A stretch of DNA of 64,000 nucleotides, taken from contig JAFUEZ010000002.1 in assembly GCA_017470115.1 (NCBI GenBank), positions 49,665 to 113,664 on the forward strand, read 5' to 3'. Origin of the DNA: Bacilli bacterium (GTDB taxonomy: Bacteria; Bacillota_I; Bacilli_A; RFN20; CAG-826). Below are positions 7,629-55,478 of the stretch, piece by piece; positions within the stretch are counted from its first letter, which is position 1; the number at the start of each line of letters is the position of its first letter. The notes beneath the pieces were generated by a model. It was not told the origin of the DNA. It searched no databases and worked only from the letters and a program-made list of their open reading frames with translations. The translations under genes were made by a program, and so were the position numbers.

Positions 7629-7648
7629 GGTTTTGCAGGGTTTTTGAT
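7629..7648 (+). repeat. Instance of the recurring intergenic motif (GGTTTTGCAGGGTTTTTGAT).
   Basis: It matches the consensus RGTTTTTGCAGGGTTTTT that recurs across the window. Confidence 0.6.
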
Positions 7649-7741
7649 ATTTTTTCATATTCACTATATAACGTGTTTATATATAAAAGCAAAGGGCTTA
7701 GCTTTTGCCATGCCCTTTGTTTTTGAAAGAATATTTTATGA

Positions 7742-10700
7742 TTAATATTCTTCTTCTGGTTCTTTTCTTTCTTTCACATTAATCTTGCCGAGTGCAATAA
7801 GAGCAATGAAAGCTGCATCTACAAGTGCTAAGACACCAGCAACAATCCAACCAGCGATTAAGCCTGATTTCCATGGGGACATTTCATACCAAATGGAAGC
7901 ACTTGGGGAAATACCTTGGACACAGTTACTATTTGCTTTGTTGAATAAAATGTGTTTTGTAGCATCTTTTAAGTGATAGACAGCTGTTGGGGAAGATGTG
8001 TCATATAAACCATCTGTACCATTATTGGTAAGAGTTAAGTGACCACCTCTTCTTAACATGAAGTCAGAAGTCATATAAGTATTCTTTTGACCACCAGCAT
8101 CAGTAATTGCTGTACCTGTGAAGCCAAATTCATCTTCGAGGATGTCATGGATAGAGACGCTTGCACCGCCCCATGTGGCACCGATTCTGTTATAACATGT
8201 CATGATGCCTGTTGCAGCTGACATAGTCTTTTTGGATAAATTGGTATCTAATTCTTCGCCAACTTGTGCATAATATTTAACTTCCATTTTGGCTTCTTTC
8301 ATGTAAAGTTCCCAACCTTTAAGGTAGACTTCACGGAAAGCTTGTTCGTTAACCCATGAACAATAACCATTCTTTTGACGATTTGTTTCTTGATCGTTTA
8401 ATGCATAGTGTTTCATGAAGGTGATTAAACCTTTTTCGGAAGCACCACCTGCTTCAGCAGCAGCCATCTTACCAGCTAAGATACCATCTTCTGAATAATA
8501 TTCATAGTTTCTACCACCGAAGGCGCTTCTATGCATATTGAGACCATAACCATAGATACCAGTGATTAATGTGCCACCTGCTAAGTAGTTAGCATGAGCT
8601 TCTTCACCGAAGGCTTCACCTAGTTCTCTAGCGAGTTTTTCATTGAATGTTGCAGCAACCATTGGATCACCACAGTACCATTTATTGATGTTTTTAATTG
8701 TCAAAGCGTGAGCATAATAACCATATGGGGAGTCAGCATCATAAGATTCTGGAACACCATTTTCGACGTCAGCTTTTTCATTCCAACCACCATTGGTGAC
8801 CATTTCAACCATCTTAGAGAGGGTGAATTGATTCATATAGTCATCCCATTTTGGATCATTGAAGTCAACACCTCTCATACTTGCTAATGTATAGCTTGTA
8901 CCATCGGTATTAACGCTTGGCATTTCTTTGATTGGATTATTTTCTTCTGCCCAAACATCGTATCTGGCAACTTGTTTCAATGCTCTTGCGTCTGTTAATT
9001 CAAAGTCATCTTCTACTGGAGATTGTGGGAAAGAGTCTTTAAAGTTAGTTCTTGTGAAGTTAATAGCATAGCCTTCACCATGATCAGCTTCACCAAAATT
9101 TTTGAAGTGATAATTTAATTCATCATCTTCTTTATTAATAGCAACTGATTTATCTGTGGAACGTTTGCCATCTACGCCATCTTTATAAACAACTTTCTTA
9201 GAAAGATTATCAGTCCATAAGACTTTTTCTTTGCCAGAGGTCATTTCATCGATGTCAGCCCAAGAGTGAGCGTTATCAGATAAATAGAAGTTATAATTAC
9301 CAGCATCTAAAACGTAGGCTTTTTCAACTTGATAATCATAGCTTGTAAAGTAGTCTCTATTGACCTTAATTTCTAAGGTTTCAGAAGCACCAGCCGCTAA
9401 GATTTCGGTTTTTCCAAATCCGCCTAATACGACATGTGATTTTTCGACGTGATTTGCCTTATTTTCGGCTGTGTAAGGAACATTAACATAAATTTGAGCA
9501 ACACCTTTACCAGCAACAGGACCAGTATTAGTGACTTTAACTTTGAATGTGTATTCATTAGAAGCAGCATCAAATGATGGAGTTTCAGCAAATTCTTGTG
9601 CAAATGTTGTATAGCTTAAGCCATAACCGAATGGGAAGACGACTTCTCTAGCATAATCAAAGCCATTATAGTTACCTTCTTTCGCTTCTTTATAAGCTGT
9701 TTCATAATAACGATAACCGACATAGATTCCTTCTTCATAATCAACGAAGAATGTTTCATCTTGATAAGAATTTAATTCATCAGAATTTGAATACACGTAT
9801 GAACCGAAATTCTTATATGTTGGATCTTTTCTTAAATCACGGACATATGTATCAACTAAGTGACCAGATGGGTTAACAGCGCCTTTTAAGATATTAGCTA
9901 ATGCAATTCCACCTTGAGAACCACAGCAACCAGCCCAGATTGCACCATTAACTTTAGAAAAATCATATTTATTACCTGTATATGGATCTGTATAGTTACC
10001 ATCAGAATCCATGTTTGGATCGTTTTCTTGTAACCAACCAAGTTCCATTGCGTTAGCAGAGTTAACGACAATAATAACTTTGTTGAAGTGTTTACAAGCA
10101 TAATCAATGAGCTTTAATTCAGCGTTATTGATAACTAAGCCACTTCTATTTTGTTCACTCATGCCTTGATTTAATGATTGGTCATTACCTTCACCAGAGT
10201 TTCTCTTTAAGGTGATGACGGCTGTTGGATATGAAGCAAATGTAGATTCAGCACTGGCTAAGGCAGTAGCTGGATCAACAAAATCACCATTTGCAGTAGC
10301 ATAAACTTGTTTAGTAGCTTGATTGAATGGGATATCTGTATCTTGTTCAATGCCGTTGGCTAAAGAGACTGCTCCACTTGTGCTTGCTGGGTCTTCACCT
10401 CCAGACATATTGTTGTGCCAAGAATAATAGCCTAACACAGTGACACCTTCATTAGCAGCAAGTGGTAAAGCGTTATTCTTGTTTTTTAACAATGTCATAC
10501 CTTCTTCAGCGGTAAGTTGTGTCATTCTTTGTGCGTTTTTTAAAGCATCGTCTTGATTATCAAATTCAAAATCAATGTAATTGCCATCTAAAGAGCTATT
10601 ATCTTTAGTATGTTGTTTGCCACGTCCAAGTAAGAGATCTAAGTTGTTTTCTTGAACGTTAGCGGCAATTGTGACGCCACCTAATAAAGCCAAGACGGCA

Positions 10701-10753
10701 CCTCCTATGATGGCTAAGTAAGTAATTCTTCTATTTTTAGCTTTCATGTTCAT
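7742..10753 (-). CDS. Glycoside hydrolase family 3 enzyme (beta-glucosidase/xylosidase-like) of 1003 aa. The domain order is circularly permuted, with an N-terminal signal-anchor and a C-terminal TM helix.
   Basis: KHYALNDQETNRQ and GFTGTAITD (the domain-1 KHF and nucleophile-Asp region) lie near the C-terminus. The alpha/beta-sandwich region lies near the N-terminus. Hydrophobic segments occur at both ends. Confidence 0.8.
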   Translation of the reverse strand: MNMKAKNRRITYLAIIGGAVLALLGGVTIAANVQENNLDLLLGRGKQHTKDNSSLDGNYIDFEFDNQDDALKNAQRMTQLTAEEGMTLLKNKNNALPLAANEGVTVLGYYSWHNNMSGGEDPASTSGAVSLANGIEQDTDIPFNQATKQVYATANGDFVDPATALASAESTFASYPTAVITLKRNSGEGNDQSLNQGMSEQNRSGLVINNAELKLIDYACKHFNKVIIVVNSANAMELGWLQENDPNMDSDGNYTDPYTGNKYDFSKVNGAIWAGCCGSQGGIALANILKGAVNPSGHLVDTYVRDLRKDPTYKNFGSYVYSNSDELNSYQDETFFVDYEEGIYVGYRYYETAYKEAKEGNYNGFDYAREVVFPFGYGLSYTTFAQEFAETPSFDAASNEYTFKVKVTNTGPVAGKGVAQIYVNVPYTAENKANHVEKSHVVLGGFGKTEILAAGASETLEIKVNRDYFTSYDYQVEKAYVLDAGNYNFYLSDNAHSWADIDEMTSGKEKVLWTDNLSKKVVYKDGVDGKRSTDKSVAINKEDDELNYHFKNFGEADHGEGYAINFTRTNFKDSFPQSPVEDDFELTDARALKQVARYDVWAEENNPIKEMPSVNTDGTSYTLASMRGVDFNDPKWDDYMNQFTLSKMVEMVTNGGWNEKADVENGVPESYDADSPYGYYAHALTIKNINKWYCGDPMVAATFNEKLARELGEAFGEEAHANYLAGGTLITGIYGYGLNMHRSAFGGRNYEYYSEDGILAGKMAAAEAGGASEKGLITFMKHYALNDQETNRQKNGYCSWVNEQAFREVYLKGWELYMKEAKMEVKYYAQVGEELDTNLSKKTMSAATGIMTCYNRIGATWGGASVSIHDILEDEFGFTGTAITDAGGQKNTYMTSDFMLRRGGHLTLTNNGTDGLYDTSSPTAVYHLKDATKHILFNKANSNCVQGISPSASIWYEMSPWKSGLIAGWIVAGVLALVDAAFIALIALGKINVKERKEPEEEY

Positions 10754-10759
10754 TTCCTC

Positions 10760-11407
10760 CTATTCTTTGACGACTTGAACGTTTTGTTGATTAACTTTAC
10801 GTGCATAGTATTTTTGGAATAATAAGACACCACAGTTAATAGCTTTGAAGATGCCGGTGATTAAGCAGACAACTAAGACCACAGTTGGGTAATAGTCTTT
10901 GCCAAAATATAATTCACCATTCATAGCTGGTAATAAGTATTCTTCATAATAATTGGTGTAAGAACCGGTCACGTGTTTAGCGTTTTCAATCCAAAGTTTG
11001 TCACAGTTGAAGAGAATGATGCCACCAAAGATTAAACAAATGGCAACGATTCCTTCAACGATGGCTTTTTTCTTATTTGTGCCTCTTCTGTTGAAGTTAG
11101 TAGCGAGCATAATGCAAGCAACGATACAACCGATTAATGGTAAGAAACAACCTAAGAATGTCCAGATGTTGAATGTGGCTTCTGTGTAACCTTGAATAAT
11201 CATGTTTCCATAACCAGAGAAGATGGCTTGATAGCCTGGATAACTAAAGCCATTAGCATATTTTGTGCCATCATCTGTAAAGATTGTGAAGACATCTGAG
11301 AAATTAAATAACACTAATATGACAATCGCTAAAATGCCTAAAGCGATAGAGATGAGGGCTAAGATTTTAGCTGTTGGTTTTAAGATCTTTAAAACTTTGT
11401 TTTCCAT
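10760..11407 (-). CDS. Polytopic membrane protein of 215 aa, function unknown, in the same operon as the GH3 gene.
   Basis: It has about five or six TM helices and is tightly linked: a 6-bp gap to the GH3 gene and a 13-bp gap to the upstream lipoprotein gene. Confidence 0.55.
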   Translation of the reverse strand: MENKVLKILKPTAKILALISIALGILAIVILVLFNFSDVFTIFTDDGTKYANGFSYPGYQAIFSGYGNMIIQGYTEATFNIWTFLGCFLPLIGCIVACIMLATNFNRRGTNKKKAIVEGIVAICLIFGGIILFNCDKLWIENAKHVTGSYTNYYEEYLLPAMNGELYFGKDYYPTVVLVVCLITGIFKAINCGVLLFQKYYARKVNQQNVQVVKE

Positions 11408-11420
11408 TATTTAGTCCTCC

Positions 11421-12899
11421 TTATTTAGATTGAGTTAAGACAACATCAATGGTTTGTGTGCCAAAGAAGCTACTCACTTTGATTTGATAGACGAAGCCAT
11501 ATTTACCTTTAGCATCTTTAGCGGACACTAATGGTTCTCTACCTTCTAAGTTAACGTTTAATGTGCTGTCGGCTTCAGACCAAGTTCCTGAAGCTGTTGG
11601 AGCAAAACCGCCTTCATATAAGTTGGCCTTACCATCAACGCCTAAGTTAAGGTTGACAGACTTTGTGCCACCATCTGGACCAGATGTGGTATAGGAGCCA
11701 ACAAATTCATATTTTGATTCACCATCGAAATCAGAAAGAGTCATTTTGTTCCATTTGACTTCTGGGTTTAAGCTGACAAAATAAGCTAAGTTATTATAGA
11801 CGAGTCTATAACCTGGGTGATCTTTATTAACGGAAGCAGTTGTTTCGTAAGTTTGTTCACCATCTTTGATAACGATCTTGCCATTATCTTCAGACCATGT
11901 TGGGCCATAACTAACAGTACGGTTTGCACCACTTGGGCTATTTAAGACGACGGAACCATCGTTATGTAAGTACATATAAGCTGTAGCTTTGCTATTGTTA
12001 TTACCAGTAGCAACTGCCTTGAAGATGTATTTGCTATCTCTTTCATCCCATTTAGCGTAATCTTTCGCTAAAGTTTTATAGAATGTTGGATCTTTAGCTT
12101 GGAATTTAACTAAGGATTCGTGGCCTTCGATGTTGACGTTATAGTAGAATTCATGACGGCCTTCGTATTTATCAAAGTCAGCGTGAATAACTGTTTTGTT
12201 TTCATCATTGAGATTTAAGATATAGCCATATCCTTCTTCTAATTTATAGGTTCCGCTTAATGACCAGTTATGAGCAGCTAAGTCTTCTTTAACGACTGTT
12301 AATTCAGCTGAAGCTGATTTAGTTGGATCACCTTGGCTTGTTGCAGTAATCGTGACTTTACCTTCGGCCTTTGGTGTGATGGTGCCACTGCTGACAGTAG
12401 CAATTTCTTCATTAGAAGAAGACCATGTGACGTTTTTATTTGTAGCGTTTTCTGGAAGAATTGTAGCTGTTGCTTTAACGGTTTGACCGATGAAGGCTTG
12501 TGTCATATCGAGTGAAAGACTGATGCTTTCCACTGCGACTTCTGGTTGTTGTTCACCTCCACCTGGGCCGCCTTGACCACCAGGACCACCGCCTCCACCT
12601 GGGAAGCCGCCTGGGAATCCACCGCCTGGGAATCCGCCACCAGGACCGCCTTGACCACCACTATTACCGGATGAACGACCTTGAACAATACCTTGTAAGG
12701 TGAAATTGTTACTTTTTTGATCAACAACACCTTTAAATTTGTAAGCGTAGTCGCCAATTGTTACTTCTGTATTATAGGCACTAGAAGTTGTAGCGACAAA
12801 TACGACAGGGATTTTTGCATTGCTCTGACAAGCGCCTAAACTAACAATTGATGTTGCTAAGACGATGGAGAGTAAAGCATTTTTCTTAAATACTTTCAT
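11421..12899 (-). CDS. Surface lipoprotein of 492 aa with a Gly/Pro-rich linker, a Big_2 domain and a C-terminal beta-rich domain. It is the first gene of the GH3 operon.
   Basis: The lipobox is SLGAC. The linker reads GGQGGPGGGFPGGGFPGGFPGGGGGPGG. The Big_2 signature is VKATATILPENATNKNVTWSSSNEEIATVS...AEGKVTITATS. A GAGGAGG ribosome-binding site precedes the ATG. Confidence 0.7.
   Translation of the reverse strand: MKVFKKNALLSIVLATSIVSLGACQSNAKIPVVFVATTSSAYNTEVTIGDYAYKFKGVVDQKSNNFTLQGIVQGRSSGNSGGQGGPGGGFPGGGFPGGFPGGGGGPGGQGGPGGGEQQPEVAVESISLSLDMTQAFIGQTVKATATILPENATNKNVTWSSSNEEIATVSSGTITPKAEGKVTITATSQGDPTKSASAELTVVKEDLAAHNWSLSGTYKLEEGYGYILNLNDENKTVIHADFDKYEGRHEFYYNVNIEGHESLVKFQAKDPTFYKTLAKDYAKWDERDSKYIFKAVATGNNNSKATAYMYLHNDGSVVLNSPSGANRTVSYGPTWSEDNGKIVIKDGEQTYETTASVNKDHPGYRLVYNNLAYFVSLNPEVKWNKMTLSDFDGESKYEFVGSYTTSGPDGGTKSVNLNLGVDGKANLYEGGFAPTASGTWSEADSTLNVNLEGREPLVSAKDAKGKYGFVYQIKVSSFFGTQTIDVVLTQSK
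12540..12670 (-). repeat. GC-rich imperfect short repeats (GGxCCnGG-like) encoding the Gly/Pro-rich linker.
   Basis: Reiterated units ccacctggg, ccgcctggg and ccaccagga form a local GC island in an AT-rich genome. Confidence 0.6.
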
Positions 12900-12973
12900 T
12901 GTATTCCTCCTCTACCTCTTTCGAGTTTTTCATGACTATATCCTATAAGAAAAAAAGTAAAGAAAAACCATTT

Positions 12974-13042
12974 GGGAAAAGCTCCCGTTATTAAGGGACA
13001 TAAATAATTTAAATGGGACAAAAGTCAAATTTATTGGGACGA
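12974..13042 (-). promoter_or_regulatory. Four direct repeats of TGGGA(C/A)A (TGTCCCA on the transcribed strand) at 21-bp spacing upstream of the GH3 operon; putative LytTR response-regulator boxes.
   Basis: GGGAMA occurs at about 12974, 12995, 13015 and 13036. A -10-like TATAGT lies downstream, nearer the ATG. VirR and AgrA-type boxes are direct repeats with the same periodicity. Confidence 0.5.
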
Positions 13043-13090
13043 AAAAAGACAATCAATAGATTGCCTTAATTCACATAAGTGTGACTTATT

Positions 13091-13825
13091 TTATAAATAA
13101 ATAGATTTATTTTTACGCGTAACAGAAAGGTATTCTTCCATGATTTCATCTTTTCTTTTACTAGAAAGAGGGAGAACTTTATTATTAGTTAATTTAACCT
13201 CATTTGTACCAATCATTCTAATAAATAGATAATTAACTAAATACCCTTTGTGTACACGTATGAAACCATTTTCTTTTAATTTGCTTTCTAATTCACCCAT
13301 TAGTACACGGGCATCGAATTTAGAACCATCTTTTAAATAAAAAGTTTGATAGTTTCGATTACCTTCGATATACATTACTTGATCAATATCCGCGGAAATC
13401 GTTTCGGTTTTACAAGAAATAGTAATCTTTTTATTTTCTCTATTAGTATTGAGCGCTGTATTAACAAATAGTTCCAAAACACTAGCGAAGTCCTGAATAA
13501 TTCTTGATTTACGGATAAAACCAAATGGATGGAGTTGTAATGTATCAAATACTAAATCTTCTCTTTGAGAAAGATAGATAATATCAGTTTGAGGATTGAA
13601 ACCTTTTAATTTTTTACCAACTTCTAAGCCGTTAATTTCTGGCATATCAATATCAAGGAAGACAAGACGATAATTTTTTTCCTCGGCCATCGCTAAAAAG
13701 TTAATAGGAGAAGAAAAAGCATCTAAAGAGATAGCAATATTCTTTTCTTGAAAGAAAGATTCTATAGCGCCTTTAGAAATGAGTAAGGCAGTCTTATCAT
13801 CATCAAGCAAAGCAATCTTAAGCAT
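13091..13825 (-). CDS. Response regulator with a receiver (REC) domain and a LytTR DNA-binding domain (AgrA/VirR-like).
   Basis: The receiver motifs are LLDDD and FLDIDMP. The C-terminal LytTR region reads YIEGNRNYQTFYLKDGSKFDARVLMGELESKL...FIRVHKGYLVN. Confidence 0.85.
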   Translation of the reverse strand: MLKIALLDDDKTALLISKGAIESFFQEKNIAISLDAFSSPINFLAMAEEKNYRLVFLDIDMPEINGLEVGKKLKGFNPQTDIIYLSQREDLVFDTLQLHPFGFIRKSRIIQDFASVLELFVNTALNTNRENKKITISCKTETISADIDQVMYIEGNRNYQTFYLKDGSKFDARVLMGELESKLKENGFIRVHKGYLVNYLFIRMIGTNEVKLTNNKVLPLSSKRKDEIMEEYLSVTRKNKSIYL

Positions 13826-15173: not shown

Positions 15174-15215
15174 ACTTAACTATATTAACATAGTTACCTC
15201 TATTTTGATATCACA

Positions 15216-15242
15216 GGGACAAAAAGTGCCCCTTTTGGGACA
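15216..15242 (-). promoter_or_regulatory. Two GGGACA direct repeats 21 bp apart upstream of the kinase/regulator operon; a putative autoregulatory LytTR site.
   Basis: The sequence tcacaGGGACAaaaagtgccccttttGGGACAaac lies 45-70 bp upstream of the kinase start. Confidence 0.45.
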
Positions 15243-15398
15243 AACAAAATGTTTTTGTATTGACAAGTTCATATGCAAAACTCGTTTTATTTATTTTGTT
15301 ATAAATCTCTCGTACTTCGTTCAACAATTTGAAGAATTATAAGAAAGAAAAAGATGCCATTATAGACTAAATGGGTTCACTTCAAATGCTAATCTTTT

Positions 15399-15674
15399 TT
15401 AATTGTCATCATAATGAGACCACATTGAATGTATTACGACTGTGTTAATATCTTTGTGAACTTTATAAACTAGACGATGTTGAAGATTAATTCTTCTAGA
15501 ATAATAACCTTGTAAATCACCAACCAGTTTTTCATAGTTAGGTGGGTTTTGAAAAGGATTTTTTGCGATAAGGTTTAATAATTTCTTTACTTTGTCTTCT
15601 AATCCAGCGTTTTTAAGTAGTTTTTTATCTTTTTCAGCGTTTTTGGTGAATTTAATAATCCACATAACTACCAC
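15399..15674 (-). CDS. yoeB: YoeB/Txe-family type II toxin (mRNA interferase).
   Basis: KLVGDLQGYYSRRINLQHRLVYKV...SMWSHY matches the YoeB family signature. The gene overlaps the upstream antitoxin gene. Confidence 0.8.
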   Translation of the reverse strand: MVVMWIIKFTKNAEKDKKLLKNAGLEDKVKKLLNLIAKNPFQNPPNYEKLVGDLQGYYSRRINLQHRLVYKVHKDINTVVIHSMWSHYDDN

Positions 15675-19452: not shown

Positions 19453-19453
19453 T

Positions 19454-20602: not shown

Positions 20603-20621
20603 ATTATAAATAGTTTGATAT

Positions 20622-20948: not shown

Positions 20949-20974
20949 TTTCTTAATCCTTTCTTGATTGATAC

Positions 20975-21895: not shown

Positions 21896-22405
21896 TTAAT
21901 ATTTTTCAAAAATCATTACAAAATCTATGTTTTGAAGTCCGCTACCCAACTCTATAATTTCTTCTTTTTCGATTGTAAAACCAATCGCTTTATAAGCATT
22001 TATAGCATCAATGTTTTTTTGATTAACATTGAGTTTTGCAGGCTTTTTGTATAATTCGATCAATAATTTAATGAAACGTTTTGCTATTCCTTTTCTTCTA
22101 AAATTTTCAATGAAATAGATTTTATCAATATAGAAATAGTTTACTTTTTCTACATAAGAAGCAAAACCAATAAAATTATCCATATATTTAAATAAGACGT
22201 ATTCATAACCGTCGTTTATATAATTTCTTATAGAATTGATTTCAAAATATTTAGTTAAAAGTAAATTTATTTGCTCGTCAGGCAATATATCTTTATAAAC
22301 TTCGTTCCATATCAAAATAGCTAGTTTTTTAATTGCGAGAAGCTCTTCTTCGTTTTTAGCTTTACCAACATTAATTTCGATGTTTCCGGTCCCTATAATT
22401 TTCAT
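21896..22405 (-). CDS. GNAT-family N-acetyltransferase.
   Basis: The acetyl-CoA-binding motif RRKGIAKRF (R-x-x-G-x-A) is present in a 169-aa protein. Confidence 0.7.
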   Translation of the reverse strand: MKIIGTGNIEINVGKAKNEEELLAIKKLAILIWNEVYKDILPDEQINLLLTKYFEINSIRNYINDGYEYVLFKYMDNFIGFASYVEKVNYFYIDKIYFIENFRRKGIAKRFIKLLIELYKKPAKLNVNQKNIDAINAYKAIGFTIEKEEIIELGSGLQNIDFVMIFEKY

Positions 22406-22478: not shown

Positions 22479-22946
22479 ATGGAAACAAAAGCAGAAAAGT
22501 ACGAAAGAATCGTTAAATTTATAGATCAATACCTTGAGTCAGGTGACTTTTTCAACACAACTTTAATATCGCATACACTTAATTTATTAAAAAGCGAATT
22601 TGAGTATATGGATTGGGTAGGAATATATGAAAAAACACCTAAAGAAAGGACTCTATTCTTGAGTTATTATGTTGGTGGTCTAGGTTGCGATTTAATTAGA
22701 TTTGAAAAAGGTGTTTGTGGTAGATGCGCAAGAACAAGAAAGACGCAATTATGTCCAGATATCTCTAAAGTTCCTTATCACATCGCATGTTCTGATAGCA
22801 CAAAATCCGAAATCGTTCTCCCAATCATTTCAAATAAAAAATTGCTTGCAGTTCTTGATCTTGATTCAGATTCACTCAATGCATTTGATGAAATTGATCA
22901 AAAATATTTAGAAGAAATTTGTTCACGTCTATCGCTTGTTTTATAA
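22479..22946 (+). CDS. GAF-domain protein of the free methionine-(R)-sulfoxide reductase (fRMsr/YtsP) family.
   Basis: It contains DWVGIY, a paired Cys motif (GVCGRCA) and the typical length of 155 aa. Confidence 0.65.
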   Translation: METKAEKYERIVKFIDQYLESGDFFNTTLISHTLNLLKSEFEYMDWVGIYEKTPKERTLFLSYYVGGLGCDLIRFEKGVCGRCARTRKTQLCPDISKVPYHIACSDSTKSEIVLPIISNKKLLAVLDLDSDSLNAFDEIDQKYLEEICSRLSLVL

Positions 22947-22954
22947 AAATAATT

Positions 22955-22975
22955 GAGTTTTGCAGGGTTTTTGCG
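22955..22975 (+). repeat. Instance of the recurring intergenic motif (GAGTTTTGCAGGGTTTTTGCG).
   Basis: It lies directly after the GAF gene stop and before the next ATG. Confidence 0.6.
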
Positions 22976-23712: not shown

Positions 23713-24969
23713 ATGTTAGACGAATTTGAAAAATCTATTACGGTCAAATATAGAGCAAAAATTTGGTCACGTTTTGTAAAAGCACTTAAAGAGTACGAAC
23801 TTCTTTCTCCTGGAGATAAAGTTTGTGTTTGTATTTCTGGTGGAAAAGACTCAATGTTAATGGCTAGATTATTCATGCAGCTTAAAAAACACTCTGATTT
23901 TGATTTTGATGTTGAATATCTTGTCATGAATCCCGGATATAACAAACCCAATCAAGAAGTTATTGATAGAAACCTCAAACTTCTTGGCATTGATGCCAAA
24001 ATTGTAAAAACTAATATTTTTGATGTTGCAAATCTGCAGCAAGGCAGATCTCCTTGCTTCCTTTGTGCAAAAATGAGACGAGGAGCTCTTTATAATACCG
24101 CAAAGAAATTGGGGTGTAACAAAATTGCACTTGGCCACCACTATGATGATGTCATCGAAACCACTTTAATGAATATGCTAAATTCGGGTTCTTTCCAAAC
24201 CATGTTGCCAAAACTTCATAGCACGAATTTCCCCGGAATGGAATTAATTAGACCAATGTACTTTATTAGAGAAAAAGACATAATTTCTTGGAAAAATTAC
24301 CATAATTTAGAATTTATTCAATGTGCATGTAAATTAACAGAAAGTTTACATCATGCTGAGGATGGTTCAACAATATCTCAAAGATATAATACAAAGCAAT
24401 TAATAAAAGAATTAAAAGAAACATATAACGACCAAGTTGAAAAAAACATATTTATGGCCGGATCAAACGTAACACTTGATATGGTCGGTGGTTATAGAGA
24501 AGGTGGAAAATATCATTCTTTTTTAGATTTATATGATTCAAGAATTGTTCATAAGAAAACTTACAATTCATTTAGAGAACTCTTACTTAATTCTGCTCCT
24601 TTTTTGATTGATTTTTCCAAGACAAACAACGTATTTGTTAAATTTGTAGATTCAAATAAAGAAAATCACAATTATGGTTCAGAAATTTCCTTAGCTTTGG
24701 ATGATAAATTTAATCTGGTTGTCTTGCCTCTTGAAAACAAGAATTTAAACAGCACCATCGAATATTTAAAACAAAAAAACGAAAGTGTAATCTTTTTGCA
24801 AACTCAAGAATTTGATTCTAATAGCTTAAAATCTATAAAAGCAAAAATTCAAAAAACTATGAACATAAAATTGAATAGTAAGGATGCTTCTCAATTTGAA
24901 ACTCTTAAGCAATATATAAAAGAAAAACATGTTAAAAATCAGAACATTATTGTGTTCATTAACCTTTAA
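23713..24969 (+). CDS. PP-loop ATPase of the TtcA/tRNA-thiolation family (about 250 aa) with an uncharacterised C-terminal extension of about 170 aa.
   Basis: It contains the SGGKDS PP-loop, CFLCAKMRRGALY (the TtcA-type Cys pair) and LGHHYDD. Confidence 0.65.
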   Translation: MLDEFEKSITVKYRAKIWSRFVKALKEYELLSPGDKVCVCISGGKDSMLMARLFMQLKKHSDFDFDVEYLVMNPGYNKPNQEVIDRNLKLLGIDAKIVKTNIFDVANLQQGRSPCFLCAKMRRGALYNTAKKLGCNKIALGHHYDDVIETTLMNMLNSGSFQTMLPKLHSTNFPGMELIRPMYFIREKDIISWKNYHNLEFIQCACKLTESLHHAEDGSTISQRYNTKQLIKELKETYNDQVEKNIFMAGSNVTLDMVGGYREGGKYHSFLDLYDSRIVHKKTYNSFRELLLNSAPFLIDFSKTNNVFVKFVDSNKENHNYGSEISLALDDKFNLVVLPLENKNLNSTIEYLKQKNESVIFLQTQEFDSNSLKSIKAKIQKTMNIKLNSKDASQFETLKQYIKEKHVKNQNIIVFINL

Positions 24970-24987
24970 AAACCTGCAAAACTCCAT
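24968..24987 (-). repeat. Instance of the recurring motif in minus orientation (ATGGAGTTTTGCAGGTTTTT).
   Basis: It directly abuts the stop of the 23713..24969 gene and precedes the terminator hairpin. Confidence 0.6.
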
Positions 24988-24999
24988 TATTTTTATTAA

Positions 25000-25696: not shown

Positions 25697-26613
25697 TGGA
25701 GCGGTATTACATCTTACTTATAATATTAGGATCAATAGTAATATTGTTCTTGGTATCGTCACTTCTTATCTCGATATTTCTTGCGCTATTCCTATGTAAC
25801 CCCTATAGATGGACACGTAAAAAAGCGTTTGATTGGGATTTTAATAAAGGTTGGATAAACGGAATCGAGAAAGTTAAATTAAATGAAGAAGTTTCAAAAT
25901 TATCCGATGGTTATGAGTTACATTGGAATTACGCGATGAATTCAGATTCAAACAAATTCGTAATTCTAATTCATGGATATGGTTGGACAAGAGAAGGCAT
26001 GTATAAATATGGCCTTCAATATATGAAACTTGACTTCAACATCATCACTTATGATTTAAGAGGTCATGGTGATAACAAAAGGTGTCCTATAACAATGGGA
26101 TATAAAGATGCAAAGGATCTTCACGAATTAATTTCTATCGTTAGAGAAAAATTCGGTAAAGATATATACCTTGGTATCCAAGGCGAATCTATGGGTGCTT
26201 CTACTGCTCTCATGGAAATGAAATATGATGATGAACTTAGGTTCGTTGTCGAAGATTGTGGGTATGCAACTTTAAAAGATGTTGTATATCACAAAACGAA
26301 GCAAGTCTTCCATTTACCAAAATTTTATGCAGATTTTGCAGGGTTATTTGTCAAAATGTTCTACAAATTCAGCTTTAATGAAGTTGAGCCAATGGAAGAT
26401 TGCAAAAATTCAAAGACACCTTTATTGATTATTCATGGCGATGCTGATGACTTTGTTCCTGTATCTTCTGCTTACAAGATTAAAGAAGCAAGAAACAAAG
26501 ATTCTTTAACTGAGTTGGTGATTGTCAAAGGTGCTGGGCATGCTAAAAGTTTGTCGCTTGATAACAATGCCTACTTAAATTACTTACAATATTTTTTAAA
26601 TAAGATAGCTTGA
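25696..26613 (+). CDS. Alpha/beta-hydrolase-fold protein (esterase/lipase-like) with an N-terminal TM anchor.
   Basis: It has the GESMG nucleophile elbow (G-x-S-x-G), a HGDADDFVP region containing the putative catalytic Asp, and a HAK histidine. Its start overlaps the TetR stop (TAATG). Confidence 0.7.
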   Translation: MERYYILLIILGSIVILFLVSSLLISIFLALFLCNPYRWTRKKAFDWDFNKGWINGIEKVKLNEEVSKLSDGYELHWNYAMNSDSNKFVILIHGYGWTREGMYKYGLQYMKLDFNIITYDLRGHGDNKRCPITMGYKDAKDLHELISIVREKFGKDIYLGIQGESMGASTALMEMKYDDELRFVVEDCGYATLKDVVYHKTKQVFHLPKFYADFAGLFVKMFYKFSFNEVEPMEDCKNSKTPLLIIHGDADDFVPVSSAYKIKEARNKDSLTELVIVKGAGHAKSLSLDNNAYLNYLQYFLNKIA

Positions 26614-29545: not shown

Positions 29546-29575
29546 AAAAAGCAGACAGAAATGTCTGTTTTTTTA
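29541..29575. terminator. Bidirectional terminator between convergent genes (AAAAAAAGCAGACAGAAATGTCTGTTTTTTT).
   Basis: A 6-7 bp stem is flanked by an A-run and a T-run. Confidence 0.65.
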
Positions 29576-29580
29576 AAAAT

Positions 29581-29606
29581 AGTCAGTTTTTGCAAGGTTA
29601 TTTACG
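29581..29606 (+). repeat. Variant instance of the recurring motif (AGTCAGTTTTTGCAAGGTTATTTACG).
   Basis: It is near-identical to the copy at 35581-35606. Confidence 0.6.
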
Positions 29607-31714: not shown

Positions 31715-31727
31715 ATATAAATATTTA

Positions 31728-31746
31728 GGTTTTGCGGGGTTTTTAC
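31728..31746 (+). repeat. Instance of the recurring motif (GGTTTTGCGGGGTTTTTAC).
   Basis: It lies between the convergent gene ends, after the terminator. Confidence 0.55.
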
Positions 31747-33230: not shown

Positions 33231-33253
33231 AAAAAACCTGCAAAACCTCATTC
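33231..33253 (-). repeat. Instance of the recurring motif in minus orientation (GAATGAGGTTTTGCAGGTTTTTT).
   Basis: It lies in the divergent intergenic region upstream of the sensor gene. Confidence 0.55.
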
Positions 33254-33352
33254 TTTATTACTTATTTTCATTTTTTTGACATATAGTTTTATATTTTTAA
33301 TTATTTGCTAACAAATAATTGATATAATAATTAACAATTAGAGGGCGTGATT

Positions 33353-35482: not shown

Positions 35483-35580
35483 TCCAAAATATATTTGCTA
35501 ACAAAAACAATCCAACTTAAATTCATAAGTGGGTTTTTGTTATATCATATTAATGCATGTAAATTACATTATTTTAAAAT

Positions 35581-35606
35581 AGTCAATTTCTGCAAGGTTT
35601 TTTCTA
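35581..35606 (+). repeat. Variant instance of the recurring motif (AGTCAATTTCTGCAAGGTTTTTTCTA).
   Basis: The flanking context (ttttaaaatagtca...) is shared with the copy at 29575-29606. Confidence 0.6.
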
Positions 35607-40564: not shown

Positions 40565-41791
40565 TTACTTTTCAAGTTTTCCTAAATCAAATTGAATCAG
40601 TCCTTTCGATTTTTCTTTGCCGCTTTCGTAGCGAGGAACATATAAAAGTTTTCCATTTTTTCCATATATGCCTGGCCGGACTTTTCTGATTGAAAGAGGC
40701 ACTTTCCAAGAAATAAATTGGCGATTAACTGAAAGTGTCTTGCCGTTCATTTCATATTTCTCTTTAGTGTTAACTGGTTTAATGGTTAGTGGAAATTTGC
40801 CCTTAAATAGATATGCATTTTTATTTGAAAGGTCGATTTTAAAAATTGGGTTTACATTTCTAAGATCGATTGTCTCTAAATAGTTTTGTGCTTTTTTCTT
40901 GATTGAAATTTCTCCGTATTCAATATAAAGACTAAAATCATCGTTCAAAACTTTTTCCCAATTTTTAGTCTTTGACTCACAAACTTTCTTAATCTCGTTA
41001 GATTCTTTTAAAGAAATTTCATGAAAAACAAAAGAGCGATTCAATAATTGAATTAGCATCAAATAGAAACTTTGCTCATCATTAAATTGGCTTGAAAAAT
41101 CGTAATAATTAACTGTTCCATTAATGATAAAACTATCAATTTTAGTCAAAAAAGCCTGCAAATCTTGATTCTTTTTCAAAATTTCTTTGATTAAAATAGA
41201 TTTTTCTTCTCTTGTCATTTTATTAATTTTTTCAATTCTGATCTTGTTGCGTTTAAATACAGGGACTAAATTTGATGGGTCAATTGAATAAGGAATATTG
41301 TGCTCTTCTACATATTTAAGAAGTTCGTCTTTAGTATATAAAGTTGCAAAAGGCCTGATGATAATTGCTCCTTTATATTCGTTTCTTTCTTTAATTCCAT
41401 AATAATTAACATATCCTCTTTCTACTTGTAAGTAATATGTTTCGATGAAGTCATCAATGTGTTGAGCAATAAGGACGTTTTTAATGCCTGTTTCTTTTGC
41501 TACATTAGCAAAATAATCATAGCGAACTGTTCTTGCCCAATCTTCTTCATTTACTTTCTTTGGCATATGAGTTTCTAGAACGTGTAACTTAACGTTGTGA
41601 TTCTTGCAGAACTCTCTAATTCCATTTTCATCATCATTTGCCTGTTCTAAAATATGGTAGTTCACGTGAACAACTTCAAAATAAATATTTTCTTCTAAAA
41701 GCATGTGAAACAAAGCCATTGAATCTGGCCCATAACTACAAGCTAATAGATATTTTTCTTTATTCGTCAAGTTTGTCTGCATCTTTATCAA
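40565..41791 (-). CDS. tilS: tRNA(Ile)-lysidine synthetase.
   Basis: It carries an SYGPDSMAL PP-loop (SGGxDS variant), and its position between mfd / the S4 protein and ftsH matches Bacillus synteny. Confidence 0.8.
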   Translation of the reverse strand: MIKMQTNLTNKEKYLLACSYGPDSMALFHMLLEENIYFEVVHVNYHILEQANDDENGIREFCKNHNVKLHVLETHMPKKVNEEDWARTVRYDYFANVAKETGIKNVLIAQHIDDFIETYYLQVERGYVNYYGIKERNEYKGAIIIRPFATLYTKDELLKYVEEHNIPYSIDPSNLVPVFKRNKIRIEKINKMTREEKSILIKEILKKNQDLQAFLTKIDSFIINGTVNYYDFSSQFNDEQSFYLMLIQLLNRSFVFHEISLKESNEIKKVCESKTKNWEKVLNDDFSLYIEYGEISIKKKAQNYLETIDLRNVNPIFKIDLSNKNAYLFKGKFPLTIKPVNTKEKYEMNGKTLSVNRQFISWKVPLSIRKVRPGIYGKNGKLLYVPRYESGKEKSKGLIQFDLGKLEK

Positions 41792-42041: not shown

Positions 42042-45000
42042 TTATATGTGTTGCCTTTCTTTTTGACATGTAAACTTTATGAACGATTCTTAAAACGCTA
42101 GTAAGGGTTTGGATCCACTCTTCATCCTTATTTATAGAAATATGGATTAAATGATTTCTATAAGCCATTTTAATTCTATTTGTATATTGAATTAAAGCGG
42201 TAAACAAAGCTGTGCCGATGCCATTTAATTCAGAGAAACAATCTGCGAGAATTATCTCTACAAACTTATTGTAATCTAAAAATTCTTTAAATTCTTCAAA
42301 TGTGAGATAAATATCGATGGCGCGTTTAACAAAAATTCCTTTTGTGCTTTCTGGTAAATTACCAAATTGATCTTTTAAGTCTCTTTCTAAAACAGCAAGC
42401 TGATCAAGCGTTGTCGTAGATACAATTTTTTGGTAAATTTCGATTTTTTCTTCGGAATTAGCAAAGTTTTTTGGAATAAATGCAGTAATTTGCGAAACTT
42501 GATTTGTCTTTTTTGCAACTTCTTTTGCTTTACCCTCTTGCTTTTCTTTTATGGTTTCATTGAGTAATCTGATATACATATCAATACCAACAGAATCTAT
42601 AAATCCAGCTTGCTCAGGACCTAAAATGTCACCAGCTCCTCTAATCAAAAGATCTCTTTGCGCGATTTTATATCCACTTCCTAGTTCGGTGAAATCTTGA
42701 ATTGCTTTTAATCTCTTTTTTGCCTCTTCATTTAACTTTTTATTTTCTTTAATAGTTAAATAAGCAAAAGCAATTCTATCTCCTCTACCAACTCTACCCT
42801 TAATTTGATAAAGTTGCGATAGACCGAACTTGTCAGCGTTTTCTACAATTAACAAATTTGCATTTCTAACATCAATTCCGTTCTCGATTATTGTTGTAGC
42901 AAGCAATATATCAACATTGCCTTCATAGAAATCATTCATGACATTATCAATGTCTTCTTTATCCATTTTTGCGTGAATAATCGCGATTTTTGCGTTTGGT
43001 AACAAGCGTTGTAATTTCAATGCTTTGTTATAAATAGTTGCAATTTCATTATAAACATAGAAAACTTGACCTTGTCTTCCTAATTCCCTGCTAATTATTT
43101 CTTTTATTGCGTTCTCATCATAGTTAATAACATATGTTTGAACTGGCATTCTGCCTTCTGGAGCAGTTTCAATTGTAGAGATGTTTTTAAGGCCAATTAA
43201 TGAACTTTGAAGTGTTCTAGGAATAGGTGTTGCGCTTAAAGTCAAAACATCAATATTAGTATAAAGTTCTTTGATTTTTTCTTTTTGTTCAACACCAAAT
43301 CTTTGCTCTTCATCTATAATCAAAAGACCTAAATTTTTAAACTGAATAGTCTTAGATAAAAGCTTGTGTGTTCCTATCAAAATGTCCGTTTTCCCTGCAG
43401 AAACCAACTCTTTTATTTGTTTTTCATCTGAAGGAGTGTTCATTCTTGTAAGAATTTTAATGCTTACTGGGAAGTCTTTAAATCTCTCTAAAGCGACTTT
43501 GTAATGTTGATTTGCAAGGATAGTTGTTGGACACAAGAAACAAACTTGTTTGCCACTCAAAACTGCCTTCATTGCTGCTTCCAATGCGACTTCGGTTTTT
43601 CCAAATCCAACATCTCCACAGAGCAATCTATCCATTGGAGCAGACGATTCCATATCGCTTTTGATTTCGTTCAAAGACTTTTCTTGATCTTTTGTTAATG
43701 TGTGTTCAAAACTTATTTCAAATTCTTTTTGAAGATCGTCGTCTTTTGAAAAAGCAAAGCCTTGGACTTTGGCTCTTTCTTGATAAAGACTCAATAATCT
43801 ATCTGCAAGATCATTTATTCTTTCTTTAATCTTCTTTTTGGTTTTTTCCCATTGTTTTGAATTTAAATTATTAAGTCTTGGGCTCGCTCCTTCTTTACCT
43901 GCATATTTTCTTATTAAATTGAATTGATATAAAGGAACATATAATTTATCGTCATTAGCGTAAATTATCTCGATATAATCGTTTTTTACACCATTTAAAT
44001 CGACTGTCTCAATTTTAGAGAATTTGCCTATTCCGTATTTTTCATGAACAACATACTCTCCAGGCTCCAATTCTTCGTAAGATTCAATAATTTTGCCTTC
44101 TTTAAATTTAGTTGAGTAAGTTGAAAGATGATTTTTCTCTTTAAAAATGTCTTTTGAAGAAAGTACGACCAATTTTTCTTTAGTAAATTCGTAAGAAAAG
44201 GCAAAATCTTTTACCATCAAAGAAACTCTGGTGTTTTCGCTGATGTTGAAGTCATCAGTAAGTGTATATTCTTCTTTAATTTCTTCAAGTATTCGAGTGA
44301 TTTTGGTTTTTTGTGTATCGTCCTGTGCAACAAGCAGAATTTTATATCCTTGTACCAAATAATATTCGATCAAATTTCTTGCATTCTCAGTTTTGAAATT
44401 AAAATCGCTAATTGCTCTTAATGGTATTGATGTATCGTTTTTATCTAAATAGAAAGAGTTCAAAATATAAAGCTTGTTTTGCTTTGTAAATAGGTCGGCT
44501 CTTTCGTTAAAGTATTCAAGATGAGATATGCATTTATTATCAGCTTGAAGTTCTAGAAGGAATTTTCTAGATTCGTTTAATAGTGCTTCTTTTGATTTTT
44601 CAAAATCGTCTTTTGAAGAAATAATTATTGAATAATTCTCTAAAAAATCAACTAAATTTGTGTGAAAACCCTGCAAAAACCCAATATATTTATAGTTTTT
44701 GAAAGAAATTACGCCTTGTTCTATTTGCTCTAAATCTAGATTTACGTTAGCTTGAAGCTCTTCTTTTTGTGCATCATTTTTATTAATTAAATCTTTTTTG
44801 AGCTGGTTTATAATTCTGTTTTTAGCGCCTTCAATTTCTTCCTTTGAAAGGACGTCGATTGTTGCTGGAATGATTTTACATTCTTTTATTTTTTCAGTAC
44901 TAATTTGTGTTTCAATATCAAACAATCTGATTGACTCAATCTCGTTATCAAAGAATTCAATACGTAATGGCTTGTCATAATTTAAAGAAAATACGTCTAT

Positions 45001-50900: not shown

Positions 50901-52463
50901 CTATTTTTCTTTGTTCTTTTTGTTCTTTAAATCAGTTAAATTTTTATAAATATTTTTAAGTGCAGGATACATTTCTAAATACGCTTTTTCAAATAAATAT
51001 TTGTATTCTGCAGCGATTTTTGGATTTGGAGTGAAAGTTTTTACATATCTAACCATATTCTTTTTTGCTTCATCAGCACTCTTATAAGTGCCATCTGCAA
51101 TGAATTGAGCCATAGCACATCCAAGACTAGAATTTTCATAAGTTTCACTCTTTAAAACAGGTAAATCGAATAAGTCAGCGGTGATTTGACAAATCGCATC
51201 ACTTTTTGATCCTCCACCTGCAACAGTAATATATTTAGCTTTTAATTTTCCTCTATTTTCGATGCTCATTAATCCTTCTTTTAGCCCATATCCAATACCT
51301 TCAACAATGGCTCTATAGATATGATATTTTGTGTGAACATCATAAAACCCAACGATCCCGCCTTTTGCTAAAGGTCTACTTAAACCTGGTCCCCAATATG
51401 GTTGAAGAATAAGTCCATCGCTTCCTGCTGGAATATTTAAAATCTTTTCATTTAATACTTCTTCAGTAGCTTTGTTTTCTATTTCTGCTTCTAAGTTTTC
51501 TGATCCACCAAATTCATTAATGAACCATTTTAACATCCAATAACCTCTATAGATTTGGACTTCGCCCGTATATGTTCCTTTAAAACATGTCGAATATGAA
51601 GGAAGGAATTTTTCAGGTTCAAAATATGAATGTTTTACGATAGCAATCGAAGAACTTGTTCCATAAGAAACGTGTGCACAGTTTTCATCGATCGCTCCAC
51701 AACCTAAGGCTTCACAAGATTTATCGTTTCCAGTAGCAATATAAGGAATTCCTGCAGGAATGCCAGTTTCTTCATAACATTTTTGAGTTGTATGTCCAAT
51801 TACTGAGCCTACTTCAACAATTGGAGGCATAAGTTTTGGATCAATTTGGAATAAATCTCCTTTCATTGCTCCTTTTTTATACCATCTTCTATTTTTATAA
51901 TCGATTGGGAAGTGACCAGTCATATTTGATGCGCTATCAGCTAAAACTCCTAACATTCTATAATTAAAATAAGAATTTAAAGGTGCATAATATTTTATTT
52001 TTTTCCAGTTTTCTGGTTCATTTTCTTGTAACCAAATAGCTGGGGTTCTTTTCCTATTTAAAACAATCGTTTGTTCCATGCCAACTAATTTAAAAGCAAG
52101 AGCATGGATAAATTTTAATTTCTTTTTTAAATCGGCTTGACGTTGATCTAACCAAATAATTGATGGTCTAATTGATTTATAATCTTTATCTAAATAAGCA
52201 GCACTATCTCTAAAACATGTTGATGAAATCGATTTTATAGAATCTAAAAGTTCAGGATGTGATGCGGTGAGTCTCTTTGCCGCTTTACACATGCAATCAT
52301 AATAATAATCTGGTTCTTGTTCGGCATAGCCAGGTTTTGGTGAAAAGTAAGGCTCACCATATTTTTCTTGTTCAAAAGCTAAAAATTTACCTGTTTTATC
52401 AACAATCGAGACTCTAACAGATTGGGTTCCATAGTCAATAGCAATAACGTTTTCCTTTTCCAT
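50901..52463 (-). CDS. FGGY-family carbohydrate kinase (glycerol/xylulose/rhamnulose-kinase-like). The start has been moved to the internal ATG that has an AAGGA ribosome-binding site.
   Basis: The N-terminal motif is AIDYGTQSVR, the second motif is VAGGGSKS, and the two-domain length fits the family. Confidence 0.75.
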   Translation of the reverse strand: MEKENVIAIDYGTQSVRVSIVDKTGKFLAFEQEKYGEPYFSPKPGYAEQEPDYYYDCMCKAAKRLTASHPELLDSIKSISSTCFRDSAAYLDKDYKSIRPSIIWLDQRQADLKKKLKFIHALAFKLVGMEQTIVLNRKRTPAIWLQENEPENWKKIKYYAPLNSYFNYRMLGVLADSASNMTGHFPIDYKNRRWYKKGAMKGDLFQIDPKLMPPIVEVGSVIGHTTQKCYEETGIPAGIPYIATGNDKSCEALGCGAIDENCAHVSYGTSSSIAIVKHSYFEPEKFLPSYSTCFKGTYTGEVQIYRGYWMLKWFINEFGGSENLEAEIENKATEEVLNEKILNIPAGSDGLILQPYWGPGLSRPLAKGGIVGFYDVHTKYHIYRAIVEGIGYGLKEGLMSIENRGKLKAKYITVAGGGSKSDAICQITADLFDLPVLKSETYENSSLGCAMAQFIADGTYKSADEAKKNMVRYVKTFTPNPKIAAEYKYLFEKAYLEMYPALKNIYKNLTDLKNKKNKEK

Positions 52464-55353: not shown

Positions 55354-55370
55354 TTAATTTACTTCATACA

Positions 55371-55402
55371 TTAAGACCAGTTTAAAACTGGTCTTTTTTT
55401 AT
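55371..55402 (+). terminator. Rho-independent terminator GACCAGTTTAAAACTGGTCTTTTTTT after ppdK.
   Basis: An 8-bp stem is followed by a T-run. Confidence 0.75.
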
Positions 55403-55409
55403 ATTTAAA

Positions 55410-55448
55410 AAGCCTGTACAGTATTTTTACTTGACAGGCTGTTTTTGT
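55410..55448. terminator. Second, bidirectional hairpin AAAAAGCCTGT-loop-ACAGGCTGTTTTTG.
   Basis: A 7-bp stem is flanked by an A-run and a T-run. Confidence 0.5.
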
Positions 55449-55458
55449 ATAAATATAT

Positions 55459-55478
55459 AGTTTTTGCAGGGTTTTTGG
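55459..55478 (+). repeat. Instance of the recurring motif (AGTTTTTGCAGGGTTTTTGG) abutting the stop of the small minus-strand gene.
   Basis: It matches the consensus exactly. Confidence 0.6.

Follow-up and report, generated by a model that had tools for sequence, protein, structure and literature searches.

A two-part DNA element, possibly read as an uptake-like signal, repeated in a narrow clade of uncultured Bacilli

Genomes from a narrow clade of uncultured Bacilli carry many copies of a short DNA element made of two conserved blocks separated by six nucleotides. We describe this element in a 64-kb stretch of DNA (the window), part of a 180-kb scaffold with 31% G+C from a metagenome-assembled genome of an uncultured member of the Bacilli (ENA ERZ28654714). 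An initial annotation had noticed the right half of the element as an intergenic motif of 17-20 nt and had offered three readings: a species-specific repeat of the REP or BOX kind, a site for a nucleoid or terminator-associated factor, and an uptake-signal-like sequence. Here we show that the motif is over-represented, that it has a two-part anatomy, that it is placed without regard to strand or transcription, that its nucleotides are conserved inside genes and that it is limited to one clade. From these properties we infer that a sequence-specific protein probably reads the element on double-stranded DNA. What would such a protein do with it? The reading that we rank first, speculatively and with a probability of roughly 0.3, is an uptake or self-recognition signal comparable to the uptake signal sequences (USS) of Pasteurellaceae such as Haemophilus and the DNA uptake sequences (DUS) of Neisseriaceae such as Neisseria. 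Almost as probable is a site that serves as a boundary or roadblock or has an architectural role, so that two of the three original readings still lead; the REP/BOX-like one is not supported.

The motif is far more frequent than the composition of the DNA predicts. A search for RGTTTTTGCAGGGTTTTT with at most three mismatches finds 11 matches in the window where 0.46 are expected (standard deviation 0.67), and none of 100 dinucleotide shuffles reaches that number. Each of the sites listed in the initial annotation holds the sequence given for it, among them a minus-strand copy at 24968-24987 that has one G fewer (GCAGGTTTTT) and is not among the 18-mer matches. The copies at 29575-29606 and 35575-35606 do share a longer context, AAAATAGTCA[G/A]TTT[T/C]TGCAAGGTT. 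We enlarged the sequence to 79 kb by adding neighbouring loci of the window's own scaffold. A weight matrix, built partly from the same 14 sites that it then scored, finds 14 sites in these 79 kb and none in 10 shuffles. This is one site per 5.6 kb, close to the density of one per 6 kb estimated at the outset.

The 18-mer first noticed proves to be the right half of a longer element of about 28-32 bp; the core of 17-20 nt is real, but it is not the whole. From left to right the element consists of a T-rich tract, AAAAATA, a 6-nt spacer that is fixed in length and variable in sequence, and TTTTGCAGGGTTTTT. Its 32-mer form is TTTTTTTAAAAATATTGGGGTTTTGCAGGGTTTTT. In 13 of the 15 window copies AAATA, with at most one mismatch, stands exactly 6 nt upstream of TTTTGCAGG, against about 5% expected at a fixed position. 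The left block mostly reads AAAAATA or TATAAATA, and a T-rich stretch often lies ahead of it. The spacer and the flanks are different in every copy. Two blocks at a fixed spacing, with spacer and flanks free to vary, point to protein contacts and not to a copied mobile unit.

The same architecture is found outside the scaffold. Public metagenomes scanned with the pattern AAATA-N6-TTTTGCAGGGTTTT yielded 35 low-GC contigs (23-34%) from rumen and gut, after an unrelated repeat accounting for most rows of the scan had been discarded. A position-frequency matrix of the 35 contigs shows conservation beyond the search pattern at A -13, A -12, T -17 and T +14, together with a weak TTKRRK preference in the spacer. 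Nothing is conserved farther upstream in this matrix (there is no -35 element) or downstream. A and T tracts follow one another at intervals of about ten bases, roughly one helical turn, and the right block can be read as two G-T-rich half-sites one turn apart. As for the discarded repeat, about 80 matches (within loci L095-L210; 36-49% G+C) represent one interspersed sequence with conserved flanks, ...GGACACTTTGAACACGTCTTGAAATAAACTGTTTTTGCAGGGTTTTGAACTGTTAGCAAGCTGTGACAGTCTGAAATG..., in a few samples from marine gutless-worm metagenomes. It is apparently eukaryotic host DNA, unrelated to the bacterial motif.

Could the element be a palindrome or a structured RNA? It has no dyad symmetry, as its first description as non-palindromic implied. 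Only 4 of 64 copies have a complementary arm within 200 nt, where about 7 are expected, 37-mers fold no better than shuffles on either strand (mean z about +0.3), and an Rfam search of the window at the gathering score gives the tRNA-Leu as its only match. These results, with the variable spacer and flanks and the occurrence in several species, speak against the REP/BOX-like repeat proposed at first. Most copies are unpaired, but two can form hairpins with a nearby partial reverse-complement copy: one in L124 at about 6208-6260 (AAAAACCCTGCA...TGCAGGGTTTTT) and one about 500-545 nt to the left of the window start (ATTTGCAGGG...CCCTGCAAAT). Both resemble the paired, inverted uptake sequences that act as terminators. 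A literature search with the exact motif returned unrelated primers and no description of it. Among viral contigs the 25-nt pattern gave one chance match and the 15-mer scattered single matches, with no sign of an association to phages.

Where do the copies lie, and which way do they point? Of 43 intergenic copies, 12 sit in a convergent gap and 9 in a divergent one, while 7 run with both of their neighbouring genes and 14 against both; copies within genes occur in both sense and antisense. Intergenic DNA holds 1.2-2.7 copies per kb and coding DNA 0.04. Convergent junctions are richest, with 0.35 copies per junction, and in the window four of the five convergent junctions longer than 50 nt carry one. 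Orientation relative to replication is uninformative. The origin, recognizable by rpmH-dnaA and a cluster of DnaA boxes, lies at the right end of the scaffold, with 8 plus and 5 minus copies on the left replichore and a single copy on the right. The motif is nonetheless not a feature of the origin region: it is genome-wide, because 33 of the 35 motif-bearing low-GC contigs are not syntenic with the 79-kb region.

The element keeps close company with stop codons. It abuts or overlaps one in 22 of the 41 copies beside gene 3' ends, whereas random placement in the same gaps gives 7.6 (P<5e-5). Its T-run end meets the stop of an opposite-strand gene 14 times, because TTTTTA reversed reads TAAAAA; its A-run end meets that of a same-strand gene 9 times, with TAA contained in TAAAAATA. 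This pattern suggests that the element has been retained while spacer DNA was lost from a compact genome. Since it is seen in either orientation, it points to the duplex and not to the transcript. True hairpin terminators adjoin the motif but do not lie within it, and they stand on either side (compare L100 and L199 with the window copies). The association with terminators and stop codons described in the initial annotation is therefore real without being exclusive, since copies also occur in divergent promoter regions and inside genes. A copy does end near the 3' end of the tRNA-Leu, 32 nt away (35602 against 35634).

Copies inside genes show that selection or drive acts at the nucleotide level. 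There are 4 such copies where synonymous-codon shuffling predicts 0.57, and none of 400 shuffles reaches 4. The clearest case is mfd, in which the peptide Y-K-Y-I-G-F-L-Q-G-F is spelled TATAAATATATTGGGTTTTTGCAGGGTTTT with the help of the rare codons GGG (5% of Gly), TTG (8% of Leu) and CAG (4% of Gln). All five species that carry the copy have GGG-TTT-TTG unchanged and four of them keep CAG, although their Mfd proteins are down to 64% identical to that of the window and, over the gene as a whole, only 27% of the columns with identical amino acids have an identical codon in the five species. The residue after the motif's Q varies (G, A or D), yet the first base of its codon remains G. An insertion does not explain the copy: the protein alignment runs through it without a gap, and the motif is coded in frame through substitutions. 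We regard this conservation of rare codons as an unusually clean case of DNA-level selection within a gene. A copy in tilS is common to the three closest species; at the Leu-Gln codons that it covers, L003 carries a full copy pointing the other way. The genic copies listed in the initial annotation fare unevenly. Those in mfd and rsmA are members by the matrix, whereas those in the GNAT and hydrolase genes match the core only and are doubtful; the rsmA and GNAT copies do both encode K-K-P-A-K.

How widely is the element shared? Loci of relatives (numbered with an L) were collected through homologues of Mfd and RsmA. The nearest GTDB species representative has a lysyl-tRNA synthetase only 82% identical to that of the window, and farther relatives are labelled Bacilli, Acholeplasmatales, Izemoplasmatales or Erysipelotrichaceae. 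By the matrix the motif is strong in the window species and in L331/L335, L332/L338 and L148, which make four lineages at species level, and weaker or variant in L003 and L333; L004 has the mfd copy only. A matrix scan of 17 more distant Bacilli and Mollicutes-like relatives found no motif. The element is thus confined to a narrow clade of uncultured Bacilli, in which it fades with evolutionary distance, and it is not specific to one species as had been proposed.

Within the clade some copies hold their place while others move or invert. The positional conservation on which the initial annotation had asked for evidence is found, for example, at mfd and at the junction between the genes for pyruvate phosphate dikinase (PPDK) and an 84-aa protein. 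The PPDK-junction copy keeps its position and orientation in three species with different spacers; in a fourth (RsmA 61% identical) a degenerate relic of it follows directly after the ispE stop codon. Opposite-orientation copies occur in relatives at three places. Besides tilS these are the 3' end of the ttcA-like gene, where the copies of the window and L331 are opposed, and the junction of the FGGY and ABC genes, where L339 has an intergenic copy opposed to the one in the FGGY gene of L335. Intergenic regions could not be aligned with those of species at 70-78% identity, and among strains at 97% identity the motif shows no polymorphism.

Taken together, the fixed blocks, the absence of structure, the independence of direction, the constraint inside genes and the clade limits are accounted for most simply by a protein on duplex DNA. 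How might this work? A putative protein or protein complex would touch two contact blocks, AAAAATA and TTTTGCAGGGTTTTT, across a 6-bp spacer whose length would matter and whose sequence would barely do so. The genome would keep about one copy per 5-7 kb, through a maintaining force acting on the DNA itself and blind to the direction of transcription. Copies would gather where they are tolerated, in intergenic gaps and mainly next to stop codons and the T-runs of terminators; gene segments with little conservation would also host them, with rare codons spelling the motif. In the full version of the uptake model, a surface or competence protein would prefer DNA that bears the motif, and preferential uptake and recombination, whether or not selection contributed, would maintain the motif at high frequency and almost without variation throughout the clade.

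The comparison with known uptake sequences is the main reason for ranking this model first. Like USS and DUS, the element is short, non-palindromic and nearly invariant and occurs in both orientations (bioRxiv 10.1101/2025.10.24.684340; PMC1939737). Like them it is shared by a clade, is weaker or variant in farther relatives and occasionally forms inverted pairs able to fold into hairpins; like the extended USS it combines a core with helically phased A and T tracts. About half of uptake sequences lie in terminators, and they are biased toward genome-maintenance genes and form dialects among relatives (bioRxiv 10.1101/2025.10.24.684340). The counterpart here of the bias toward maintenance genes is that the most deeply conserved genic copy lies in mfd. 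Four of the seven features listed for USS and DUS are found: over-representation, both orientations, clade sharing with dialects, and in-gene copies that go against codon preference. There are differences too. The host belongs to the Gram-positive-type Bacilli, a lineage without known uptake specificity, and the AAAAATA block is as conserved as the core. Sequence-specific uptake is reported only from Pasteurellaceae and Neisseriaceae, two Gram-negative families (PMC1939737). Gene tables for about 79 kb and scattered contigs, a small part of the genome, list no competence gene. We therefore say that the element may work like an uptake sequence and do not class it as one.

Several observations weigh against an uptake signal. 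As far as we know, sequence has no bearing on which DNA the model competent Firmicutes take up. Classic USS and DUS occur about once per kb with a large genic share; the density here, about one per 5.6 kb, is fivefold lower, and the intergenic bias (1.2-2.7 copies per kb against 0.04 in coding DNA) is far stronger than theirs. The site of 28 bp is longer than a DUS and more strictly two-part than a USS. Uptake sequences are usually sparse in variable DNA, and the motif-rich stretch at 22-36 kb varies among relatives. Positions conserved over deep divergence, as at mfd and the PPDK junction, are explained by a site-specific function no less well than by drive. Moreover, most of the unbiased data on the motif come from a single 79-kb region near the origin.

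Other systems offer partial likenesses. REP/BIME, BOX, RUP and ERIC sequences are also clade-specific intergenic repeats found about once per 6-8 kb at gene 3' ends and in convergent gaps, and protein-binding roles (gyrase, IHF) have been proposed for REP/BIME. REP, BOX and ERIC are, however, palindromic or modular, fold into hairpins and are mobilized or duplicated as units, whereas our motif has no dyad and no fold, has a variable internal spacer and also occurs within genes. Chi, KOPS/SRS, NBS (read by Noc), SBS (SlmA), matS and parS resemble it as clade-specific signals at the DNA level, maintained in codons and read by a dedicated protein. Chi and KOPS differ in having 5-8 nt and a strong replichore skew; the motif is 28 bp long and intergenic, is split 8:5 on the left replichore, and has sub-words such as GCAGGG that fall equally on both strands (7 against 7). 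NBS, SBS, matS and parS are palindromic, number 10-100 copies and are mostly genic, whereas the motif is asymmetric, overwhelmingly intergenic and more numerous. In RGTTTT-GCA-GGGTTTT one may also see half-sites one turn apart, suited to a head-to-tail dimer as in the CtsR heptad and OmpR/PhoB-type operators. Those operators number a few to tens per genome, upstream of regulated genes; the motif has hundreds of copies, many of them convergent or genic, and its sequence matches none of theirs.

The strongest rival to the uptake signal, which we consider possible and nearly as probable, is the site of an abundant cytoplasmic protein that delimits transcription units. Such a protein would act as a roadblock or insulator against read-through and antisense transcription, with Mfd possibly freeing the stalled polymerase, or the site would be topological or architectural. 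The topological version recalls REP/BIME in E. coli, which are sites for gyrase and IHF. In favour of a boundary are an intergenic density 30-70 times that of coding DNA, the peak in convergent junctions, and convergent pairs such as L177-1538 and L179 that are separated by little beyond the element. The excess of stop-flush ends suggests an element kept while spacer DNA between genes was lost, the PPDK-junction position is conserved across species, the spacing of about 6 kb is similar to that of E. coli REP, and the phasing of the A and T tracts suggests that the DNA is bent or wrapped. The mfd copy could even give feedback control, which is a lead and not evidence. But 9 of 43 copies lie in divergent promoter regions, and conserved sense copies sit in mfd and tilS, where a roadblock would cut an operon. 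Some co-directional pairs have a start codon 4-8 nt past the motif (22955, L107) and must be co-transcribed through it; several junctions, such as 20602-20975 with its ordinary hairpin terminator, have no copy. An asymmetric boundary site of 28 bp in hundreds of copies would, to our knowledge, be without precedent in bacteria.

The remaining explanations fare much worse. A promoter, with AAAAAT(A) as the -10 box and transcription starting at the purine before TTTT and running into a conserved initial stretch, perhaps under an alternative sigma factor, would yield antisense, small or internal transcripts. AAAAAT or TATAAAT does lie 6-7 nt upstream of a purine-rich position, three copies on the window contig (22955, -543 and 33231) precede a gene in the same direction, and the sense copies in mfd and tilS could be internal promoters. 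It is nevertheless improbable: the element has no -35 box, no TG extension and nothing conserved downstream, in a genome with ordinary TTGACA-N17-TATAAT promoters such as that of rpmH. Only 16 of 43 copies face a downstream gene, as random orientation would have it, most point into the 3' end of a convergent gene, and the tilS copy of L003 is inverted. A 6-bp spacing between blocks fits no known sigma factor, sigma-54 (checked by hand) included; block spacing and matrix likewise do not suit sigma-70, ECF, SigB, SigH or com-box sites. Less probable still is an RNA element in 3' untranslated or intercistronic regions, which would govern processing, stability or factor-dependent termination and be read as AAAAACCCUGCAAAA right after the stop. 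The reverse complement does start at or within 5 nt of a stop codon in 14 copies, and those at 24968, 29585, 31727 and 55459 then precede a terminator hairpin. Nine others, though, abut the stop in the opposite orientation, copies occur in divergent regions and antisense within genes, the hairpins lie on either side, and there is neither a fold nor an Rfam family. Nor is the motif an intrinsic terminator: GCAGGG-TTTTT resembles the 3' half of one, but the 5' arm is missing, and a crude terminator scan found nothing beyond the hairpins visible by eye. We place lower yet a relic or end left by a mobile element (either a solo terminal repeat or a tiny miniature inverted-repeat transposable element, MITE) or a recombinase target, spread by transposition or cassette exchange. 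The core would hold at least about 25 bits where some 14 would suffice for roughly 300 sites, copies are dense in the stretch at 22-36 kb that differs in gene content, and the layout of arm, 6-bp spacer and arm loosely recalls recombinase core sites. Against this, flanks and internal spacer differ in every copy, inverted partners and target-site duplications are absent, the mfd copy arose by in-frame substitutions, and copies adjoin core genes (gyrA, PPDK, lysS/tRNA-Leu) where their position is conserved from one species to another. Chance composition, which could favour a T-rich word given a genome of 31% G+C whose terminators supply many T-runs, is refuted by the shuffles of both kinds of search, by the 17 similarly AT-rich relatives without the motif and by the conserved rare codons of mfd. 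Known operators (CodY, ComA, ComK, CtsR, MraZ), IHF sites, hix/gix half-sites and Xer/dif show a loose resemblance at best and no match. The observation itself is solid, and the motif fails the defining tests of the REP, MITE, terminator, promoter, Rfam and Chi/KOPS families.

The copies of the window are collected in Table 1. One supposed partial copy, over the ribosome-binding site of dnaA, proves to be a Shine-Dalgarno sequence and nothing more.

Table 1. Copies of the element in the 64-kb window, doubtful members and one non-member; scores are weight-matrix bits
Feature	Position	Strand	Score	Remarks
Strong intergenic copy, AAAAATA-TTGGGG-TTTTGCAGGGTTTTT	7618..7645	+	51	Between minus-strand GH3 glycosidase and GGDEF genes
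Strong intergenic copy	22945..22972	+	46.7	TAA stop of plus-strand gene 22479-22946 inside TAAAAATA; likely ATG of next gene 8 nt beyond T-run
Intergenic copy	24967..24994	-	37.9	T-run end overlaps stop of plus-strand ttcA-like gene (23713-24969); bidirectional hairpin terminator on A-run side
Degenerate intergenic copy (TTTTGCAAGGTTATT), convergent junction	29575..29602	+	35.8	Order: hairpin terminator, motif, stop codon of minus-strand SDR gene (overlapped by motif)
Intergenic copy, GCGGGG variant, convergent junction	31717..31744	+	40.7	Order: hairpin terminator, motif, overlapped stop of minus-strand gene 31743-32945
Intergenic copy, divergent region	33231..33258	-	29.2	About 30 nt upstream of TTGACA box for plus-strand gene at 33347
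Degenerate intergenic copy (TTCTGCAAGGTTTTT)	35575..35602	+	28.7	Between end of gene 33347-35482 and 3' end of minus-strand tRNA-Leu(CAA)
Weaker copy inside tilS, sense	41149..41176	-	25.9	
Copy inside mfd, sense	44664..44691	-	34.1	Encodes YKYIGFLQGF
Weak copy, antisense, 3' part of FGGY sugar-kinase gene	50993..51020	+	19.3	Near-identical in L335 and L338
Perfect-core intergenic copy, convergent junction of PPDK and 84-aa genes	55449..55476	+	40.7	After two hairpin terminators; 4 nt from stop of 84-aa gene
Weak copy inside rsmA, antisense	56819..56846	+	25.6	Reverse complement encodes K-K-P-A-K; present in near-identical strains, not in other species
Core-only match in GNAT acetyltransferase gene	22031..22048	+		No AAATA block, below matrix threshold; doubtful member
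Core-only match in hydrolase gene	26331..26348	+		No AAATA block, below matrix threshold; doubtful member
Non-member: TTTTTGCAGGAG, dnaA ribosome-binding site	63435..63446	+		6 nt before ATG

Some neighbours of the copies deserve mention. Two hairpin terminators in a row (55354-55448) follow the PPDK gene ahead of the motif; the second is kept in L335 and L338 and has a different hairpin in its place in L339. A partner-switching signalling cluster (30500-35482) comprises two fusion genes, each bracketed by motif copies: one joins a STAS anti-sigma antagonist to a kinase-like domain (30500-31663), the other a PP2C phosphatase to an RsbW-like kinase (33347-35482). The cluster lies in the part of the window from 22000 to 36000, downstream of lysS and tRNA-Leu, where gene content differs in each relative. 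In L331 the variable region holds a Schlafen/AlbA-type ATPase and DNA methylase fragments (19700-23300), in L003 rpsF-ssb-rpsR (11500-21000) and in L333 a LytTR two-component pair (18200-23400). This stretch looks like a variable hotspot, and it is also the richest in motif copies within the window.

The region has further features of note. The gap between rpmH and dnaA (62885-63451) contains five 9-mers resembling DnaA boxes (TTTTCCACA or TAATCCACA) within 566 nt and is probably oriC; rpmH itself has a canonical TTGACT-N17-TATAAT promoter. Between about 400 nt to the left of the window start and 1848 (L089 13466-15727), a large gene for a 1215-aa protein with Big_3 (bacterial Ig-like) domains contains internal direct repeats of about 460-830 bp, 76-79% identical, which probably encode tandem domains. 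Two paralogous pairs of a LytTR response regulator and an HATPase_c_5 histidine kinase stand beside paralogous GH3 glycosidase genes at 13091-15173 and in L088 at 20173-21431, which suggests a duplicated module for sensing and glycan utilization.

What would the element mean for these bacteria? We think it conceivable, and put it forward tentatively, that this is the first uptake or self-recognition signal outside Pasteurellaceae and Neisseriaceae, recognized by a receptor for a two-part site in uncultured gut and rumen Bacilli. On an equal footing stands the alternative that it is the first known case in bacteria of transcription units separated by a boundary element that has no hairpin and is defined by a protein. 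Whichever holds, the motif offers a sharp 28-bp marker for binning and tracking the clade in metagenomes, and a ready bait for pull-down or DNA affinity purification sequencing (DAP-seq) of its reader protein. As a boundary or architectural site, it would give transcription units or supercoiling a protein-defined punctuation that needs no hairpin. As an uptake signal, it would place sequence-selective transformation in a Gram-positive-type lineage, so that such uptake would extend beyond two Gram-negative families. The motif would then also point to a new kind of receptor and help to follow gene flow among the uncultured Bacilli of rumen and gut.

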